From Escherichia coli (GTDB taxonomy: Bacteria > Pseudomonadota > Gammaproteobacteria > Enterobacterales > Enterobacteriaceae), in assembly GCF_044647545.1 (NCBI RefSeq), contig NZ_CP172818.1: a stretch of 64,000 nucleotides of DNA; one strand, written 5' to 3'. Shown one piece after another: positions 49,247 through 61,536 of the stretch (its first letter is position 1; the number at the start of each line of letters is the position of its first letter). Below the pieces are notes generated by a model that was given only the letters and a program-made list of their open reading frames with translations, was not told the DNA's origin and did not search any database. The position numbers and the translations under genes are program-made.

Positions 49247-50198
49247 ACCATTCCTTATGTTTCAGAGGGTTAGCCATGGCACCCAAAATATCAGAAATCA
49301 CGTTAACAATAATGACCAATGAGCCACACACCATCACTCCGGCGGAAATGGCTGCGTAATCCTGCTGGCGGATGGCGTTAATTAACCAGCGCCCTAAACC
49401 CGGCCAGCTAAAAACCATTTCGGTGATCATCGCCAGCGTCAGCATGGTAGAAAACTGTAAGCCCAGGCGAGGAATAACCGGAGGTAACGCGTTATGCAGA
49501 ACGTGGCGACGCAAAATAGTAAAGCGCGACAAACCGCGGGTCGCCGCTGCTTTAACATAGTTCTGGTCATACACTTCGATAGTGCTGATACGCATTAGTC
49601 GGATCACTTCAGTTGTTGGCGCAACCGACAGGGTGATCACGGGTAATATCATATGGCGGATTGCGCTCATGACCATTTCATCCCGCCACGGTGAGTCCGA
49701 AAGCCAGGCATCAATCAACGCAAAACCGGTAATCGGTTTCACTTCGTAGAGCAAATCGAAACGCCCAGAAACGGGCAACCAACCTAGCGTGAGTGAACAA
49801 AACAGCGTCAACAGAAGCGCCAGCCAGAACACCGGGATTGAAAAGCCCAGTAAGGCGATGGCGTTGATCAAGTTATCCTGCCACTTATGGCGCGTAATCC
49901 CGGCAATCATCCCCACGGGGATGCCAACAATCAGCGCAAAACCGAAGGCGAGGATGCACAGTTCCATCGTCGCCGGGAAGACCTCTTTTAACTGTTCGGC
50001 AATCGGTTGGCCGTTAATGCTGGAAACACCAAAATCCCAGTGGATCAGGCCATTAAACCAGAACACCCAGGCATTCCACAGTGACGCGCCTTGTAACGGC
50101 GCATGTGGGGTGAAATAGCTCAAGCTGAAGCCAACGAAGGTCAGCAGGAACAAGGTGACAATCAATAACAAAATACGGCGTAAGGTGAAGATAATCAT
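49233..50198 (-). CDS. sapB: Peptide ABC transporter permease SapB
   Basis: 321-aa polytopic permease (OppB/DppB family). Confidence 0.95.
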
Positions 50199-52396: not shown

Positions 52397-52529
52397 TATT
52401 TGCCCCTGGGGTTAATGCGCTAAGCATAAGGGCGGATGATAGCACTCGTGATCCGGGTCATACATCTTTTTATAGTTAATGGCGCGGTGCATTACCCTCA
52501 GCCAGGATAATGCGCCGCGCATCCGACTA

Positions 52530-53915
52530 TTACGTTTCGCTCACCGGCGTTCTGTCACCATCATACAACGGCACTTTGCGATAGCGGCGGATCAGATACC
52601 ACAAATATGCGCCGCCTAACGAAGCCCATACCAGACCGAGTGTCAGTGACGTTGACTCGAGGTTAACCCACAGCACACCCACCGTCAGCGCGCCAACCAG
52701 CGGCATCAGCAAATAGTGGAAGTGATCCTTCCAGCTTTTATTCATTCCTTTACGCCGCCAGAAATGATTAAACACCGACAGATTTACGAAGGTAAATGCC
52801 ACCAGAGCACCGAAGTTAATCAATGCTGTGGCGGTAACTAAATCGAAGAACAGCGCCGACAACGCGACAATCCCGACCATAATGACGTTCAGTGCCGGAG
52901 TCCGCCATTTTGGGTGCACATAGCCAAACACGCGCTCCGGAAACACATTGTCACGCCCCATCACATACAGCAGACGCGACACGCTGGCGTGCGACGCCAG
53001 GCCAGACGCTAACGTGTTCACAAACGTGGTACAGAGGAAAATCGACTGGAAGAGCTTGCCGCCGACGTACAGCGCAATCTCAGGTAGTGCGGCGTCCGGG
53101 TCTTTAAAGCGGCTGATATCAGGAAAGAACAGCTGCATAAAGAACGACGCAGCGATAAAGATAACGCCACCGTAGACCGCCGTCAGGAAGATGGCTTTCG
53201 GGATCACGCGTGCGGCGTCCGGCGTCTCTTCCGAAAGCGTGGTCACCGCATCGAAACCGAGGAAGGAAAAACAGACAATCGTCGCCCCGGTAATAATCGG
53301 GATCAGGTGCGCGTTCTCGCTGATAAACGGCTGAAGTGACCAGACGGTGCCAACGCCTTCTCCTTTATGCAGTCCCTGAACCACCAGGAAGATAAACACC
53401 ACCATGATGGAGATTTGCACCAACACAAACAGGGTATTGAAGTTAGCAACCAGGTTGACGCTCTTCAGATTCGCGGCGGTTAAAATGGCGACGAAGGTTA
53501 CCACCCACACCCACGGCGGCACTTCCGGGAAGAGGGCGGAGAGATAGATTTTCGCCAACAAGACGTTGATCATCGGCAAAAAGAGATAATCCAGCAGCGA
53601 TGACCAGCCGACCATAAATCCGACGTGCGGGTTAATCGACTTTTGCGCGTAGGTATAGGCCGAACCGGCTTCCGGAAACTGGCGAACCAGTTTGCCGTAG
53701 CTGATAGCGGTAAACAGCACGCCCGCCAGCGCCAGCAAATAGGACGCCGGAACGTGACCGTCGCTAATGCCGGAGACAATACCAAAAGTATCAAATACGG
53801 TCATCGGCGTGAGATAGGCCAGACCCATCATCACCACCTGCCACAATTTCAGTGATTTTCGCAGACGGGTTTTGCCAGATTGCGCAGCAATAGTCAGTGG
53901 TGAATTAATAGCCAT
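52530..53915 (-). CDS. puuP: Putrescine importer (APC family)
   Basis: Start trimmed to [15 protein letters not shown] (461 aa); 12-TM amino acid/polyamine permease. Confidence 0.93.
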
Positions 53916-54217
53916 AGTTGCTGCCTCCCCTGCGTAATAAGGTTTGCGGTCGTGTCGACCTGAAATCAAACCTGTTTAGCAAGGGAAGCAAAGGGGGCGG
54001 AGTCCAGTCAGTCGCAGGAGGGGCGCATACGCAGCCTCCCTCGCCATGCGGGGATTTAATCATCGGCATCATCTCATTTCCTCGTCACAGTCTTAATCGT
54101 TAACGGAAGCCCGTTGCCGCCTGCGCTCCATAACGCGACATCCGGGAAATGTCTGGATTACCAGCAAATGTCAGGCCTGGCTCCGCTCAGGCCGATGAAA
54201 CAACCCCGCAAGGGGTA

Positions 54218-55636
54218 TTACGCGTTTTTCAACATCCACTCAATTTCTGTTTCTGTGATGAGGCGCTCAAACTGCAACAGCTCATCATTTTTACAGGCGT
54301 GATAGACATGGCAGAAGCGTTCGCCTAAATAGCGGCGCAGGTGATCATTCTCGATAAACTCACCCAGGGCATCGCTCTGGCGAATCGGGAAGGGTAAGCC
54401 TTCCTGTTCCAGCCCGTTACCTTCGACTTCTTCCTGTAATGGCAGTTCGTTATCAAGGCCATGCAAAATACCGGCAAAAATCGCCGCCATCACCAGATAC
54501 GGGTTGGCATCGGCACCCGCCACGCGATATTCCACGCGGTGATTATGGCGATCGCCGCAGGGAATACGCAGGGCGACGGTGCGGTTGTTATGGCCCCACG
54601 ACGCCTGCGTCGGTACATACATACCTGGCTGGAAGCGGCGATACGAGTTCACGTTTGGTGCCAGCAACGCCATTGATGACGGCATCAGGTCAATCATCCC
54701 GGCAAGCATCTTTTTCAGCAGCGGCGAATCTTCGCCTTCCGCGTCAGAAAGCACGTTCTCGCCACGGTTATTTTGCATACTGATATGGATATGCATCCCG
54801 CTGCCCGCGTGCTCTTCATACGGCTTCGCCATAAAAGTGGCGTGCATCTTATGCTTTTCTGCCATCAGACGCACCAGGCGTTTTAGTGCCAGCGCATCAT
54901 CGCAAGCTTCCAGCACGTTATCGGTATGGTAAAGATTGATTTCAAACTGACCCGGCGAGGCCTCAGCGACCGCGCCATCAGCCGGAATCAGCTGTAACTG
55001 CGCCAGTTCATCAATATCATTGAGCACGTCGGCGAAGTGGTTGAGATTATCAACGGAGTAAACCTGGCTTTGTGTATTGCGGTCATCGGTGCCGGGCGCG
55101 CAGGGCGGTTGCAGATACCCTTCAGCGTCGCGCTGGCGATCCAGTAAATAGAACTCCAGCTCTACCGCTACGACCGGGAACAATCCGCGCTGGCGCAGCT
55201 GCTGCCACAGGCGGTTAAGAACGTTCCGCGGCTCAACGTCAAAGGGAGCGCCATCTTCATCGACCATGGTCAGGAGCATCTGACCGATAAACTCTGGATC
55301 GGCGGCAGAAGGGGTTAAGGAACCGAGAACAGGAACACAGGTACGATCCGGCTCGCCCATTTCCTGACCCAGGCCCGCTTCTTCTACTACGTTGCCCAGA
55401 ATATCCATTGCAAACACCGAGGCCGGGAAATAACACCCTTTCTCGAGCTTCTTCAGGCTTGAAACAGGAATACGTTTTCCACGGAAGCAACCATTCAAAT
55501 CGGTAAGTAAAACATCAACATATTGCGTATTCGGGTAGCGCTCCAGGTAGCGTTTCACTTCCTGCGTAAAGGCGCTACCCCGCCTCTCTTCTGACTGCTG
55601 AACAAAGTTCTCTACTTCAACGATATTGGTTTCCAT
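54218..55636 (-). CDS. puuA: Gamma-glutamylputrescine synthetase (glutamine synthetase family)
   Basis: Start trimmed to METNIVEVENFVQQ (472 aa). Confidence 0.93.
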   Translation of the reverse strand: METNIVEVENFVQQSEERRGSAFTQEVKRYLERYPNTQYVDVLLTDLNGCFRGKRIPVSSLKKLEKGCYFPASVFAMDILGNVVEEAGLGQEMGEPDRTCVPVLGSLTPSAADPEFIGQMLLTMVDEDGAPFDVEPRNVLNRLWQQLRQRGLFPVVAVELEFYLLDRQRDAEGYLQPPCAPGTDDRNTQSQVYSVDNLNHFADVLNDIDELAQLQLIPADGAVAEASPGQFEINLYHTDNVLEACDDALALKRLVRLMAEKHKMHATFMAKPYEEHAGSGMHIHISMQNNRGENVLSDAEGEDSPLLKKMLAGMIDLMPSSMALLAPNVNSYRRFQPGMYVPTQASWGHNNRTVALRIPCGDRHNHRVEYRVAGADANPYLVMAAIFAGILHGLDNELPLQEEVEGNGLEQEGLPFPIRQSDALGEFIENDHLRRYLGERFCHVYHACKNDELLQFERLITETEIEWMLKNA

Positions 55637-55679
55637 GATTCTTCGCCTTTGGTTTGTTTTCCGCTCGTTATCAAAGCGT

Positions 55680-55694
55680 AAAATATAATGACCA
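55680..55694. promoter_or_regulatory. PuuR-box-like operator in the divergent puuA/puuD control region
   Basis: aaaatataatgacca resembles the PuuR recognition motif as I recall it (AAAATATAATGAACA); further AT-rich repeats (aaatgtttg, aaaatattgaacat) lie nearby. Confidence 0.4.
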
Positions 55695-55847
55695 CTATTC
55701 GAATCTGTATGCAAACTAAATGTTTGTCAAATGTTAAATTGAGTTTGCAAAAATGAAAACCCGCTGCTAGATTGAAAAAATATTGAACATAAAGGTCATT
55801 TAAAGCGCAGTAATGGCGATAATTTAGTCCACTTTGTGAGATTGAGC

Positions 55848-56612
55848 ATGGAAAATATAATGAACAATCCGGTTATCGGTGTCGTAATGTGCAGGAACAG
55901 GCTTAAGGGTCATGCGACCCAGACTCTGCAAGAAAAGTACCTGAATGCCATCATCCACGCAGGCGGCTTGCCAATTGCGCTGCCACATGCGCTGGCGGAA
56001 CCGTCATTACTTGAACAACTTTTGCCGAAACTCGATGGTATTTATCTTCCTGGTAGTCCCAGCAATGTGCAGCCGCACCTATATGGTGAAAACGGCGATG
56101 AGCCTGACGCCGATCCCGGGCGTGATCTTCTGAGCATGGCGTTAATTAATGCCGCACTCGAAAGGCGCATCCCCATTTTCGCCATCTGCCGGGGTTTACA
56201 GGAACTGGTGGTGGCAACCGGTGGTTCGTTGCATCGCAAGCTGTGCGAACAGCCTGAATTGCTGGAACATCGGGAAGATCCCGAACTGCCGGTGGAGCAG
56301 CAATATGCGCCGTCGCATGAAGTTCTGGTTGAAGAGGGGGGATTACTGTCTGCGTTGTTACCTGAATGTAGCAACTTTTGGGTAAACTCTCTGCATGGAC
56401 AAGGGGCGAAGGTCGTTAGCCCACGGTTGCGTGTTGAAGCTCGCTCGCCGGATGGCTTAGTTGAGGCGGTTAGCGTCATCAATCATCCTTTTGCGCTGGG
56501 CGTACAGTGGCACCCGGAATGGAACAGTAGCGAGTACGCGCTTTCGCGTATATTGTTCGAGGGCTTTATCACCGCTTGTCAGCACCATATCGCTGAAAAA
56601 AAGCGACTCTGA
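55848..56612 (+). CDS. puuD: Gamma-glutamyl-gamma-aminobutyrate hydrolase
   Basis: Start MENIMNNPVIGVVM (254 aa); class I glutamine amidotransferase-like with catalytic Cys in ICRG. Confidence 0.93.
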   Translation: MENIMNNPVIGVVMCRNRLKGHATQTLQEKYLNAIIHAGGLPIALPHALAEPSLLEQLLPKLDGIYLPGSPSNVQPHLYGENGDEPDADPGRDLLSMALINAALERRIPIFAICRGLQELVVATGGSLHRKLCEQPELLEHREDPELPVEQQYAPSHEVLVEEGGLLSALLPECSNFWVNSLHGQGAKVVSPRLRVEARSPDGLVEAVSVINHPFALGVQWHPEWNSSEYALSRILFEGFITACQHHIAEKKRL

Positions 56613-56638
56613 CCACTACAGTTTAAGGAAATGCAAAT

Positions 56639-57196
56639 ATGAGTGATGAGGGACTGGCGCCAGGAAAACGCTTGTCGGAAATCCGCCAGCAGCAGGGGCT
56701 TTCACAACGTCGTGCCGCCGAACTCTCCGGGCTGACTCACAGTGCTATCAGTACGATAGAACAAGATAAAGTCAGCCCTGCCATCAGTACGCTGCAAAAG
56801 CTGCTGAAGGTGTATGGTCTGTCACTCTCGGAATTCTTTTCCGAGCCGGAAAAACCTGATGAGCCGCAGGTCGTCATTAATCAGGACGACTTAATTGAGA
56901 TGGGCAGTCAGGGTGTGTCAATGAAGCTGGTTCATAACGGTAACCCGAATCGCACGCTGGCGATGATCTTTGAAACTTACCAGCCGGGCACAACCACTGG
57001 GGAAAGAATTAAGCATCAGGGTGAGGAAATAGGCACTGTACTGGAAGGTGAAATTGTTCTGACCATTAATGGTCAGGATTATCATCTCGTCGCGGGGCAA
57101 AGTTATGCCATTAATACCGGCATCCCGCACAGTTTCAGTAATACGTCGGCAGGTATTTGCCGAATTATCAGCGCCCATACGCCCACCACGTTTTAA
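56639..57196 (+). CDS. puuR: HTH-XRE/cupin repressor of the puu divergon
   Basis: 185-aa ORF with N-terminal XRE HTH and C-terminal cupin domain. Confidence 0.93.
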   Translation: MSDEGLAPGKRLSEIRQQQGLSQRRAAELSGLTHSAISTIEQDKVSPAISTLQKLLKVYGLSLSEFFSEPEKPDEPQVVINQDDLIEMGSQGVSMKLVHNGNPNRTLAMIFETYQPGTTTGERIKHQGEEIGTVLEGEIVLTINGQDYHLVAGQSYAINTGIPHSFSNTSAGICRIISAHTPTTF

Positions 57197-57344
57197 TCTT
57201 TTTGTTCTGTAAGCCGGGTAAGCGCAATGCGCCCGGCAATCATAAAGAATGTCGCCAGAAATAAACGGGCATACGGCCCGGGGATCTCTGCGCCCTGACG
57301 TTCACAAACTGCATATATCTGATAGACGTGAAACAGGAGTCATA

Positions 57345-58832
57345 ATGAATTTTTATCATCTGGCTTACTGGCAGGATAAAGCGTTAAGTCTCGCCATTGA
57401 AACCCGCTTATTTATTAACGGTGAATATACTGCTGCGGAGGAAAATGAAACTTTTGAAACCGTTGATCCGGTCACCCAGGCACCGCTGGCGAAAATTGCC
57501 CGCGGCAAGAGCGTCGATATCGACCGTGCGGTGAGCGCAGCACGCGGCGTATTTGAACGCGGCGACTGGTCACTCTCTTCTCCGGCTAAACGTAAAGCGG
57601 TACTGAATAAACTCGCCGATTTAATGGAAGCCAACGCCGAAGAGCTGGCACTGCTGGAAACGCTCGACACCGGCAAACCGATTCGTCACAGCCTGCGTGA
57701 TGATATTCCCGGCGCGGCGCGCGCCATTCGCTGGTACGCCGAAGCGATCGACAAAGTGTATGGCGAAGTGGCGACCACCAGTAGCCATGAGCTGGCGATG
57801 ATCGTGCGTGAACCGGTCGGCGTGATTGCCGCCATCGTGCCGTGGAACTTCCCGCTGCTGCTGACTTGCTGGAAACTCGGCCCGGCGCTGGCGGCGGGAA
57901 ACAGCGTGATTCTAAAACCGTCTGAAAAATCACCGCTCAGTGCGATTCGTCTCGCGGGGCTGGCGAAAGAAGCGGGGCTGCCGGATGGTGTGTTGAACGT
58001 GGTGACGGGTTTTGGTCATGAAGCCGGGCAGGCGCTTTCGCGCCATAACGATATCGATGCCATTGCCTTTACTGGCTCAACCCGCACCGGGAAACAGCTG
58101 CTGAAGGACGCGGGCGACAGCAACATGAAACGCGTCTGGCTGGAGGCGGGCGGCAAAAGCGCCAACATCGTTTTCGCCGACTGCCCGAATTTGCAACAGG
58201 CGGCAAGCGCCACCGCCGCAGGCATTTTCTACAACCAGGGCCAGGTGTGCATCGCCGGAACGCGTTTGTTGCTGGAAGAGAGCATTGCCGATGAATTCTT
58301 AGCCCTGTTAAAACAGCAGGCGCAAAACTGGCAGCCGGGCCATCCACTTGATCCCGCAACCACCATGGGCACCTTAATCGACTGCGCCCACGCCGACTCG
58401 GTCCATAGCTTTATTCGGGAAGGCGAAAGCAAAGGGCAACTGCTGCTGGATGGCCGTAACGCCGAGCTGGCTGCCGCCATCGGCCCGACCATCTTTGTGG
58501 AGGTAGACCCGAATGCGTCCTTAAGCCGCGAAGAGATTTTCGGTCCGGTGCTGGTGGTCACGCGTTTCACATCAGAAGAACAGGCGCTACAGCTTGCCAA
58601 CGACAGCCAGTACGGACTTGGCGCGGCGGTATGGACGCGCGACCTCTCCCGCGCGCACCGCATGAGTCGCCGCCTGAAAGCCGGCTCCGTCTTCGTCAAT
58701 AACTACAACGACGGCGATATGACCGTGCCGTTTGGCGGCTATAAGCAGAGCGGCAACGGGCGCGACAAATCCCTGCATGCCCTTGAAAAATTCACCGAAC
58801 TGAAAACCATCTGGATAAGCCTGGAGGCCTGA
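57345..58832 (+). CDS. puuC: Gamma-glutamyl-gamma-aminobutyraldehyde dehydrogenase
   Basis: Start MNFYHLAYWQDKAL (495 aa); aldehyde dehydrogenase with catalytic Cys in QGQVCIAG. Confidence 0.93.
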   Translation: MNFYHLAYWQDKALSLAIETRLFINGEYTAAEENETFETVDPVTQAPLAKIARGKSVDIDRAVSAARGVFERGDWSLSSPAKRKAVLNKLADLMEANAEELALLETLDTGKPIRHSLRDDIPGAARAIRWYAEAIDKVYGEVATTSSHELAMIVREPVGVIAAIVPWNFPLLLTCWKLGPALAAGNSVILKPSEKSPLSAIRLAGLAKEAGLPDGVLNVVTGFGHEAGQALSRHNDIDAIAFTGSTRTGKQLLKDAGDSNMKRVWLEAGGKSANIVFADCPNLQQAASATAAGIFYNQGQVCIAGTRLLLEESIADEFLALLKQQAQNWQPGHPLDPATTMGTLIDCAHADSVHSFIREGESKGQLLLDGRNAELAAAIGPTIFVEVDPNASLSREEIFGPVLVVTRFTSEEQALQLANDSQYGLGAAVWTRDLSRAHRMSRRLKAGSVFVNNYNDGDMTVPFGGYKQSGNGRDKSLHALEKFTELKTIWISLEA

Positions 58833-58833
58833 A

Positions 58834-60114
58834 ATGACCGAACATACCAGCAGTTACTACGCCGCCAGTGCGAATAAATACGCGCCATTCGACACGCTGA
58901 ATGAGTCGATTTCCTGCGACGTTTGCGTGGTCGGTGGCGGCTATACCGGGCTTTCCTCCGCGCTGCATCTGGCGGAAGCGGGCTTTGATGTAGTGGTTCT
59001 CGAAGCCTCACGCATCGGCTTCGGCGCAAGCGGACGCAATGGCGGGCAGCTTGTGAACTCCTACAGCCGCGACATCGACGTGATCGAAAAAAGCTACGGC
59101 ATGGACACCGCCCGTATGCTCGGCAGCATGATGTTTGAAGGCGGAGAGATCATCCGCGAACGTATCAAACGTTATCAGATTGACTGCGACTACCGCCCCG
59201 GCGGCCTGTTTGTGGCGATGAATGATAAACAGCTCGCCACACTCGAAGAGCAGAAAGAGAACTGGGAACGCTACGGCAATAAACAGCTGGAGCTGCTGGA
59301 TGCCAACGCCATTCGCCGTGAAGTAGCCAGCGATCGCTACACTGGTGCGCTGCTGGATCACAGCGGTGGGCATATTCACCCGCTAAACCTCGCCATTGGT
59401 GAAGCCGATGCCATCCGCCTGAACGGAGGGCGCGTGTATGAGCTTTCCGCCGTGACGCAGATCCAGCACACCACGCCAGCCGTGGTGCGGACTGCCAATG
59501 GTCAGGTGACGGCGAAGTATGTGATTGTCGCCGGGAATGCGTATCTGGGCGATAAAGTAGAGCCGGAACTAGCGAAACGCAGCATGCCGTGCGGCACGCA
59601 GGTGATCACCACTGAACGGCTGTCGGAAGATTTAGCCCGTTCGCTGATTCCGAAAAACTACTGTGTGGAAGACTGTAACTATCTGCTTGATTACTACCGT
59701 CTTACCGCCGATAACCGCCTGCTGTACGGCGGCGGCGTGGTCTACGGCGCGCGCGACCCGGATGACGTTGAGCGCCTTGTGGTGCCGAAACTGCTGAAAA
59801 CCTTCCCGCAGCTGAAGGGCGTGAAAATTGATTACCGCTGGACGGGCAACTTCCTGCTGACCCTGTCACGCATGCCGCAGTTTGGTCGCCTCGATACCAA
59901 CATCTACTACATGCAGGGCTACAGCGGCCACGGCGTCACCTGTACCCATCTTGCCGGGCGTTTGATTGCTGAACTGCTGCGCGGTGACGCCGAACGCTTC
60001 GACGCCTTCGCCAATCTGCCGCATTACCCGTTCCCCGGCGGGCGCACGCTGCGCGTTCCGTTTACCGCGATGGGCGCGGCTTATTACAGCCTGCGCGATC
60101 GTCTGGGCGTTTAA
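58834..60114 (+). CDS. puuB: Gamma-glutamylputrescine oxidoreductase (FAD-dependent)
   Basis: 426-aa ORF with FAD-binding GxGxxG (VVGGGYTG). Confidence 0.93.
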   Translation: MTEHTSSYYAASANKYAPFDTLNESISCDVCVVGGGYTGLSSALHLAEAGFDVVVLEASRIGFGASGRNGGQLVNSYSRDIDVIEKSYGMDTARMLGSMMFEGGEIIRERIKRYQIDCDYRPGGLFVAMNDKQLATLEEQKENWERYGNKQLELLDANAIRREVASDRYTGALLDHSGGHIHPLNLAIGEADAIRLNGGRVYELSAVTQIQHTTPAVVRTANGQVTAKYVIVAGNAYLGDKVEPELAKRSMPCGTQVITTERLSEDLARSLIPKNYCVEDCNYLLDYYRLTADNRLLYGGGVVYGARDPDDVERLVVPKLLKTFPQLKGVKIDYRWTGNFLLTLSRMPQFGRLDTNIYYMQGYSGHGVTCTHLAGRLIAELLRGDAERFDAFANLPHYPFPGGRTLRVPFTAMGAAYYSLRDRLGV

Positions 60115-60151
60115 TTTCCGATTAACAGTGAAGAGTCAAAAGGTGTGAAAC

Positions 60152-61417
60152 ATGAGCAACAATGAATTCCATCAGCGTCGTCTTTCTGCTACCCCTCGCG
60201 GGGTTGGCGTGATGTGTAACTTCTTCGCCCAGTCGGCAGAAAACGCCATGCTGAAGGACGTAGAGGGCAACGAATACATCGATTTCGCCGCAGGCATTGC
60301 GGTGCTGAATATCGGGCATCGCCACCCTGATCTGGTCGCGGCGGTGGAGCAGCAATTGCAACAGTTTACCCACACGGCGTATCAGATTGTGCCGTACGAA
60401 AGCTACGTCACCCTGGCGGAGAAAATCAACGCCCTTGCCCCGGTGAGCGGGCAGGCTAAAACTGCGTTCTTCACCACCGGTGCGGAAGCGGTGGAGAACG
60501 CGGTGAAAATCGCCCGCGCCCATACCGGACGCCCTGGCGTGATTGCGTTTAGCGGCGGCTTCCACGGTCGTACATATATGACCATGGCGCTGACCGGAAA
60601 GGTCGCGCCGTACAAAATCGGCTTCGGCCCGTTCCCCGGTTCGGTATATCACGTACCTTATCCGACAGATTTACATGGCGTTTCAACGCAGGACTCTCTC
60701 GACGCCATCGAACGCTTGTTTAAATCGGACATTGAAGCGAAGCAGGTGGCGGCGATTATTTTCGAACCGGTGCAGGGCGAAGGCGGTTTCAACGTTGCAC
60801 CAAAAGAGCTGGTTGCCGCCATTCGCCGCCTGTGCGACGAGCACGGCATTGTGATGATTGCCGATGAAGTGCAAAGCGGCTTTGCGCGTACCGGTAAACT
60901 GTTTGCCATGGATCACTACGCCGATAAGCCGGACTTAATGACGATGGCGAAAAGCCTCGCGGGCGGCATGCCGCTTTCGGGCGTGGTCGGTAACGCGAAT
61001 ATTATGGACGCGCCCGCGCCGGGCGGGTTGGGTGGTACTTACGCCGGGAACCCGCTGGCGGTGGCTGCCGCGCACGCTGTGCTCAACATTATCGACAAAG
61101 AATCACTCTGTGAACGCGCGAATCAACTGGGCCAGCGCCTGACAAACACGTTGATTGATGCCAAAGAAAGCGTTCCGGCCATCGCGGCGGTACGCGGTCT
61201 GGGGTCTATGATTGCGGCAGAGTTTAACGATCCGCAAACGGGCGAGCCGTCAGCGGCGATTGCACAGAAAATCCAGCAACGCGCGCTGGCGCAGGGGCTG
61301 CTCCTGCTGACCTGTGGCGCATACGGCAACGTGATTCGTTTCCTGTATCCGCTGACCATCCCGGATGCGCAATTCGATGCGGCAATGAAAATTTTGCAGG
61401 ATGCGCTGAAAGATTAA
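60152..61417 (+). CDS. puuE: 4-aminobutyrate aminotransferase
   Basis: 421-aa class III PLP aminotransferase. Confidence 0.93.
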   Translation: MSNNEFHQRRLSATPRGVGVMCNFFAQSAENAMLKDVEGNEYIDFAAGIAVLNIGHRHPDLVAAVEQQLQQFTHTAYQIVPYESYVTLAEKINALAPVSGQAKTAFFTTGAEAVENAVKIARAHTGRPGVIAFSGGFHGRTYMTMALTGKVAPYKIGFGPFPGSVYHVPYPTDLHGVSTQDSLDAIERLFKSDIEAKQVAAIIFEPVQGEGGFNVAPKELVAAIRRLCDEHGIVMIADEVQSGFARTGKLFAMDHYADKPDLMTMAKSLAGGMPLSGVVGNANIMDAPAPGGLGGTYAGNPLAVAAAHAVLNIIDKESLCERANQLGQRLTNTLIDAKESVPAIAAVRGLGSMIAAEFNDPQTGEPSAAIAQKIQQRALAQGLLLLTCGAYGNVIRFLYPLTIPDAQFDAAMKILQDALKD

Positions 61418-61439
61418 TAGCCCAACGCAATAATGTCTA

Positions 61440-61520
61440 ATGCGCTGCGCTTATCAGGCCTGCAAACGACGTATTGATTATGTATGCCGGATAAAGCATT
61501 CACGCCGCATCCGGCAAGTT
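61440..61520. repeat. REP/BIME elements between puuE and pspF
   Basis: gcgctgcgcttatcaggcctgcaaac and inverted tgccggataaagcattcacgccgcatccggcaag. Confidence 0.75.
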
Positions 61521-61536
61521 GTATTGCCCAACTTCG

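Follow-up and report, generated by a model that had tools for sequence, protein, structure and literature searches.

The closest described system is the puuA-puuD region of Escherichia coli K-12 with its PuuR operators (Nemoto et al. 2012, J Bacteriol 194:3437). Papers which cite that study state that PuuR represses puuA and puuD and that putrescine releases the repressor, and a secondary source citing the same study places four PuuR DNA-binding motifs in the spacer between the two genes. The operons are given in a review as puuAP and puuDRCBE. The region is also a target of ArcA, for which Park et al. (2013, PLoS Genet 9:e1003839) reported ChIP-seq and ChIP-chip peaks in K-12 at 1359011 and 1359020, an 18-nt ArcA box, atgtttgtcaaatgttaa, scoring 14 bits, and a four-repeat site at 1359005-1359047. 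In an arcA mutant puuA was derepressed 15.3-fold and puuDR 10.6-fold (Park et al. 2013). In the present study the corresponding region of another E. coli strain was analysed in its wider context, and positions given below refer to the window, i.e. the whole stretch of 64,000 nucleotides that was analysed. The region very probably represents the bidirectional PuuR/ArcA control region of the E. coli Puu cluster, in which three boxes, numbered 1 to 3, serve as PuuR sites. This assignment draws on the boxes themselves, their non-random recurrence, their conservation across genera in sequence and spacing, and the identity of the region to K-12, all of which are presented here; ArcA binding and derepression, the puuD start, PuuR repression and release by putrescine are taken from the literature.

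Gene content and identity of the locus

The interval 55637-55847 constitutes the 211-bp spacer between the divergent genes puuA and puuD, as evident from the open reading frames and from RefSeq annotation, and it is flanked by their start codons, the puuA ATG at 55636 on the minus strand and the puuD ATG at 55848 on the plus strand. With a G+C content of 34.1% as compared to 50.4% for the 64-kb window, and with exactly these ends, the spacer is as AT-rich and as long as the original prediction had described it. A 611-bp query comprising the spacer and its flanks was 100% identical to several complete E. coli RefSeq genomes, which confirmed the identity of the region as the divergent puuA / puuDRCBE control region, and the RefSeq gene order at one of these identical loci is sapCBA-ymjA-puuP-ymjE-puuA followed, in divergent orientation, by puuD-puuR-puuC-puuB-puuE-pspF. 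Comparison with K-12 MG1655 over 271 bp spanning the spacer yielded two differences, at 55696 and 55763 only (269 of 271 bases identical), both of which lie outside the 15-nt boxes, the conserved block 4 discussed below, the ArcA site and the promoter hexamers.

Full-length open reading frames were present for all seven puu genes (puuP, A, D, R, C, B and E), in the order known from K-12. On the minus strand these are puuA (54218-55636; glutamate-putrescine ligase, 472 aa) and puuP (52530-53915; putrescine/H+ symporter), both assigned from the reading frame and RefSeq annotation. On the plus strand are puuD (55848-56612; gamma-glutamyl-GABA hydrolase, 254 aa; NF008471, 570.8 bits over residues 1-254 of 254), puuR (56639-57196; the repressor; NF007408, 385.5 bits over the full length) and puuC, puuB and puuE (57345-61417; reading frames, RefSeq annotation and NCBIfam). 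The NCBIfam equivalog cut-offs were passed from first to last residue by PuuD, PuuR, PuuC and PuuE; no NCBIfam equivalog above cut-off was obtained for PuuP, PuuA and PuuB, whose names are those of the RefSeq annotation. The seven reading frames, the annotation of the 100%-identical locus and the equivalogs for PuuD, PuuR, PuuC and PuuE together bear out the claim that the putrescine utilisation cluster is intact. PuuR combines an XRE-type helix-turn-helix (Pfam HTH_3, residues 13-66) with a cupin domain (Cupin_2, residues 111-178), and a search for solved DNA complexes of PuuR or of its close relatives returned matches to the HTH domain only, with E values of 6e-6 or weaker.

Two further observations concern the gene content of the locus. 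A small open reading frame annotated by RefSeq as ymjE (54 codons) overlaps the start of puuP in the puuA-puuP gap, and was placed at 53905-54069 of the window by homology to positions 4969-5133 of locus L001. In addition, about one fifth of complete E. coli genomes are devoid of the whole puuP-puuE cluster (corresponding to 52397-61536 of the window): the spacer query matched 4371 of 5426 complete genomes, and a query covering the puuE end and pspF matched 5421 genomes. In 1146 of these no matching place spanned 80% or more of that query, and the genomes sampled among them aligned only from query base 356 or beyond. The O4:H5 strain CU532-9 (L083:5767-6194) provides an example, in which a short pseudogene, a remnant of puuP, stands between ymjA and pspF.

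PuuR boxes and their conservation

A de novo search for repeats identified one three-copy family of 15-nt direct repeats, designated D1, on the plus strand at 55680, 55775 and 55852. The third copy is identical to the 15-nt PuuR consensus AAAATATAATGAACA, which we take to be that of Nemoto et al. 2012 and which was presumably derived from the puuA-puuD locus itself. As the consensus thus came from the same locus, the family was also assessed without it, by shuffling, and none of 1000 dinucleotide-preserving shuffles of 55637-55870 produced a reference 15-mer with two further non-overlapping copies at three or fewer summed mismatches, from which it follows that the boxes are real and not a by-product of AT-richness. 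Across both strands of the 64 kb, sites with two or fewer mismatches to the consensus were confined to these three. Box 1, AAAATATAATGACCA (55680-55694, within a 20-nt conserved footprint at 55676-55695), carries one mismatch; box 2, AAAAAATATTGAACA (55775-55789, footprint 55771-55790), carries two; and box 3, AAAATATAATGAACA (55852-55866, footprint 55848-55867), carries none and sits in codons 2-7 of puuD, outside the spacer at 55637-55847. When position weight matrix and dyad models trained on boxes 1-3 only were scanned across the 64 kb, boxes 3, 2 and 1 occupied ranks 1, 2 and 3 of 127,962 in the matrix scan.

No box was found in the puuP-puuA, puuR-puuC, puuB-puuE and ymjA-puuP gaps, where the best scores were below 0 bits as compared to a 99.9th percentile of 2.0, and PuuR control of the cluster would therefore pass through the spacer region alone. 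Beyond the puu spacer the best matrix matches, at 49300-49319 and 3966-3997 (15.9 and 16.4 bits), sit inside coding reading frames, one of them in a 423-codon frame and the other in sapB, whose annotation is that of a putrescine exporter permease, and were set aside as probably due to chance.

To place these sites in an evolutionary context, one genome per species was scanned with PuuR, giving 80 loci ranging from Escherichia to Serratia, Erwinia, Pantoea, Hafnia and Rahnella. Of these PuuR-linked loci, all from other species, 58 kept the divergent arrangement of puuA and puuD, with spacers of approximately 205-240 bp. An alignment of 59 distinct sequences was summarised over 24 genus-level representatives of the Enterobacterales, among which boxes 1-3 are conserved in position. 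The conserved blocks comprise, from left to right, the ribosome-binding and start region of puuA, box 1 (55678-55694), the nearly invariant ArcA core (55718-55735), AGTTTGCAA representing the puuD -35 element, CTGCTAGATT (55764-55773) representing the puuD -10 element, box 2 (55777-55788), ATAATTTAGTCCA at 55819-55831, the puuD Shine-Dalgarno sequence and ATG, and box 3 (55855-55866). Spacing is equally constrained: boxes 1 and 2 are 95 bp apart in 53 of the 59 sequences, the ArcA core and box 2 are 48 bp apart throughout the 59, and the distances from box 2 to block 4 and from block 4 to box 3 are 41-42 bp and 34-35 bp, respectively. A second PuuR paralogue, 82-85% identical, was encountered in many Serratia genomes, where it does not lie beside a divergent puuA-puuD pair (loci L059, L062, L064-L068 and L070-L075, from Serratia and relatives).

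Box 3 is, to judge from this alignment, conserved at the nucleotide level though it is coding. Codon 4 of puuD is the rare isoleucine codon ATA in 59 of 59 sequences, as compared to 6 of 197 isoleucine codons in nine surrounding genes, and codon 3 is AAT or GAT in all 59; codons 8-10 vary synonymously. An in-frame operator thus appears to constrain the N-terminus of PuuD (codons 1-10, window 55848-55877). Primers of published 'full' promoter constructs reach 55872-55885, so that box 3 is included, and it was these full-length constructs that gave the larger dynamic range.

That the boxes might be no more than promoter-like, AT-rich sequence recurring by composition was considered, given that boxes 1 and 3 each hold a perfect TATAAT hexamer and that the sole promoter-like match of a consensus scan uses the TATAAT of box 3. 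Such an explanation is scarcely credible, however, as composition-preserving shuffles failed in every instance to reproduce the family, as conservation extends over 15-20 nt and includes GnCCAC and TGAAC beyond the hexamer, and as box 3 constrains a rare codon; in addition, constructs carrying these sequences have been described in the literature as subject to PuuR-dependent regulation. Equally, the reading of all AT-rich repeats of the spacer as PuuR operators, which was that of the original prediction, is very improbable. Of the repeats that it had named, aaaatataatgacca (55680-55694) and aaaatattgaacat (55777-55790) both belong to family D1, and to that extent the claim stood, but the third, aaatgtttgtcaaatgtt (55718-55735), did not survive. 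The latter is AT-rich, extremely conserved and situated between two true boxes; nevertheless it differs from the PuuR box at 5 or more of 15 positions in every register on either strand, it received no high score from the box matrix, and its TGTTT and TGTTA repeats, 11 bp apart, are those of the published ArcA box, on which a ChIP-seq peak is centred. Multiple PuuR operators had likewise been proposed for the spacer, and several PuuR-type boxes were indeed found; one of the motifs cited is, however, the core of the ArcA site, the box with the exact consensus lies outside the interval, and the block at 55813-55832 had been overlooked.

A 21-nt direct repeat, TGTTAAATTGAGTTTGCAAAA at 55732-55752 and TGTGAGATTGAGCATGGAAAA at 55835-55855, is 76% identical between its copies and hints at a common origin of the ArcA/-35 region and the sequence before box 3. 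The box-like AAAAATGAAAA that comes after the first copy lacks 4 nt and is not conserved in other genera. A decayed box at 55748, suggested by repeat D2 and entailing a 4-bp deletion, was rejected for lack of conservation across genera.

Promoters, the ArcA operator and the oxygen response

The 43-nt four-repeat site published by Park et al. (2013; Tables S1, S3, S4 and S6) is present verbatim at 55709-55751 on the plus strand, which fixes the offset between the window and K-12 coordinates (U00096.2) at 1303296; for NC_000913.3 the offset is 1305272. It consists of four direct repeats 11 bp apart with atgtttgtcaaatgttaa as its core; TGTTT at 55721 and TGTTA at 55732, 11 bp apart centre to centre and flanked by weaker repeats, represent the direct-repeat architecture of ArcA sites, and aaatgtttgtcaaatgtt lies within the site as its core. 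Owing to the identity with the published ChIP-seq site and to these 11-bp repeats, aaatgtttgtcaaatgtt is assigned as the core of an ArcA operator and not as a PuuR box. A 12-nt inverted repeat, TGCAAACTAAAT at 55710-55721 and ATTGAGTTTGCA at 55738-55749, brackets the ArcA core with 92% complementarity; the puuD -35 element is contained in its right arm, and conservation across genera is lower in the left.

Relative to the mapped start of puuD, the ArcA site has been located between -70 and -28 (Park et al. 2013, Table S6), and this position and the offset place the puuD transcription start at 55779 on the plus strand. The start is fitted by a conserved -35 hexamer, TTGCAA (55745-55750), located 17 bp upstream of the -10 hexamer TAGATT (55768-55773), which is part of the conserved block CTGCTAGATT and ends 5 nt before the start. 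This promoter agrees with the consensus at 8 of 12 positions and thus falls below the threshold of the consensus promoter scan, which missed both it and the puuA promoter and returned only the match that employs the TATAAT of box 3. For puuA, which is listed as 'no TSS' (Park et al. 2013, Table S6), a promoter is proposed on the minus strand, comprising a perfect -35 hexamer TTGACA (55725-55730) and, after a 17-bp spacer, a weak -10 hexamer CAGATT (55702-55707; 3 of 6 consensus matches), from which transcription would start near 55695. The -35 hexamer is invariant in the alignment. In divergent genera A2 and T6 of the -10 hexamer are retained, with the spacer still 17 bp long, and its remaining positions diverge (CACAGT, CATTGT, TATGTT). 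The two promoters would stand back to back in the middle of the spacer, and the ArcA site covers the -35 hexamers of both. Relative to these starts, box 1 extends from about +2 to +16 of the proposed puuA start, box 2 from -4 to +11 of puuD, on the mapped start itself, and box 3 from +74 to +88 of puuD; for boxes 1 and 2 this placement is the classical one for a block of initiation.

Independent data on polymerase occupancy are in agreement with the puuD promoter. Next to its start, at 1359070 (55774 of the window), lies a sigma70 ChIP-seq peak with a value of 251 under aerobic as compared to 30 under anaerobic conditions, i.e. approximately 8-fold higher with oxygen (Myers et al. 2013). An RpoS-holoenzyme SELEX peak has been published at 1359040 (window 55744), and puuA and puuD have been described in the literature as rpoS-dependent. 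A second oxygen-dependent sigma70 peak was recorded 'within puuD' at 1359665, or approximately 56369 of the window (Myers 2013, Table S2), which suggests that a promoter inside the gene could serve puuR without involvement of the puuD promoter.

With regard to other oxygen-responsive regulators, a review citing Partridge 2006 assigns both FNR and ArcA sites to the spacer. In the work of Myers et al. 2013 puuA and puuD appear in the sigma70 table only and are absent from the tables of FNR ChIP-seq peaks and predicted FNR sites, and our scan with the FNR consensus (TTGAT-N4-ATCAA) gave 337 matches at three or fewer mismatches, which is too permissive to be informative. No convincing FNR site in the spacer emerged from the consensus scan or from those tables, and on the evidence considered ArcA suffices to explain the oxygen response.

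The candidate fourth operator and the control scheme

Block 4, ATGGCGATAATTTAGTCCAC (55813-55832 on the plus strand, +35 to +54 of puuD), of which 55819-55831 is conserved across genera, is the sole conserved block that is explained neither by a promoter element nor by ArcA, and it is probably a fourth PuuR operator. The evidence for this is of several kinds. In the models trained on boxes 1-3 only it ranked 13th of 63,981 in the dyad version and 74th of 127,962 in the directional version, the chance of a top-13 site landing in the spacer being approximately 0.04, which is of moderate significance. In the majority sequences of other genera, block 4 reads as a composite of TGGnCAATA, the left half of box 3, and GTCCAC, the right half of box 1. 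It also shares the helical phase of boxes 1 and 2, the separations of box 1, box 2 and block 4 being 95 and 42 bp, which correspond to 9.05 and 4.0 turns of the helix; box 3 does not share this phase. Finally, three clear boxes and this one candidate were counted here as compared to the four motifs of the literature.

The alternative is that block 4 serves the puuD leader as a conserved element of another kind, be it a second promoter with GATAAT as its -10-like sequence, the site of a different regulator or a translational element. We regard this as possible but rather doubtful. It gains from the poor match of block 4 to the 15-nt consensus (more than 5 of 15 mismatches), from the presence of GATAAT within the block, from the reported rpoS dependence of puuA and puuD, which makes additional promoters possible, and from model ranks no better than 13 and 74. 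It is countered by the composite of two box halves in other genera, by the helical phase and by the count of four motifs, and also by the consensus scan, which gave no promoter at this place, and by the lack of any conserved RNA structure: an RNA element in the puuD leader was rejected, as the consensus energy was near zero and neither covariation nor compensatory pairs were seen. A sigma54 promoter at block 4 was likewise rejected, the sequence being GG-N9-GT and not GG-N10-GC; a sigma54 promoter has been claimed for the cluster by a review, and the paper cited there makes no mention of puu. Assignment of block 4 to PuuR thus remains the preferred reading, with the proviso that its description as a dyad is uncertain, since one paper reports the PuuR site as non-palindromic and dimerisation as unproven.

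Taken together, these data would fit the following scheme. PuuR would bind boxes of the AAAATATAATGAACA type, all in the same orientation. Boxes 1 and 2 would coincide with the starts of puuA and puuD, respectively, box 3 falls within the opening codons of puuD, and block 4, in the leader, is probably a further site. Bound at boxes 1 and 2 it would block initiation, and the downstream sites would probably reinforce repression. Putrescine, bound to the cupin domain, would cause release of PuuR. As puuR lies within the puuD operon, this would amount to negative autoregulation. ArcA, by covering both -35 hexamers at 55709-55751, would shut both promoters when the quinone pool is reduced, i.e. under anaerobiosis. 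Three parts of this scheme are our inference, namely the promoter of puuA, the function assigned to block 4, and binding of PuuR in a cooperative or looped fashion, which is possible in view of the helical phasing.

A more far-reaching model can be put forward tentatively, in which the PuuR operator is not the asymmetric 15-bp site but a unit of approximately 20 bp with partial dyad character, and four such units, block 4 included, hold fixed positions across the Enterobacterales, boxes 1 and 2 sharing one helical face with block 4 and box 3 being part of the N-terminal codons of PuuD. Were this rather doubtful arrangement to apply, a cooperative and possibly looped PuuR complex would span both promoters and the ArcA site, and the N-terminal residues of PuuD, together with one of its rare codons, would be dictated by the operator. 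The results also have practical bearings. The sequence at 55718-55735 should be labelled ArcA and not PuuR in annotation; cloning of the 'intergenic region' as a putrescine biosensor promoter forfeits box 3, the strongest PuuR box being inside the puuD coding sequence; and an operator model built on the cross-genus footprint is cleaner than one drawn from nothing but the four sites of E. coli.

As compared to the K-12 puuA-puuD region with its PuuR operators (Nemoto et al. 2012), the locus described here is the same in 269 of 271 bases and in its genes, with the same repressor by NCBIfam equivalog. The two strains have identical 15-nt boxes, an identical block 4 and an identical ArcA site, and only 55696 and 55763 differ. 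An exact copy of what we take to be the published 15-bp consensus is also present. The control region is thus already known, experimentally characterised and of textbook level, with little discovery value, in agreement with the original prediction, which had noted it as established biology. Nor is there any difference from the multi-repeat ArcA operators of Park et al. (2013), this being the same site in another strain. More distant relatives are PauR and PsdR, XRE-cupin repressors of Pseudomonas (PMC7901475), which share with PuuR the architecture of a helix-turn-helix and a cupin domain and, like PuuR, are local repressors of an adjacent catabolic operon released by a metabolite of the pathway, but which belong to another genus and act on other operators.
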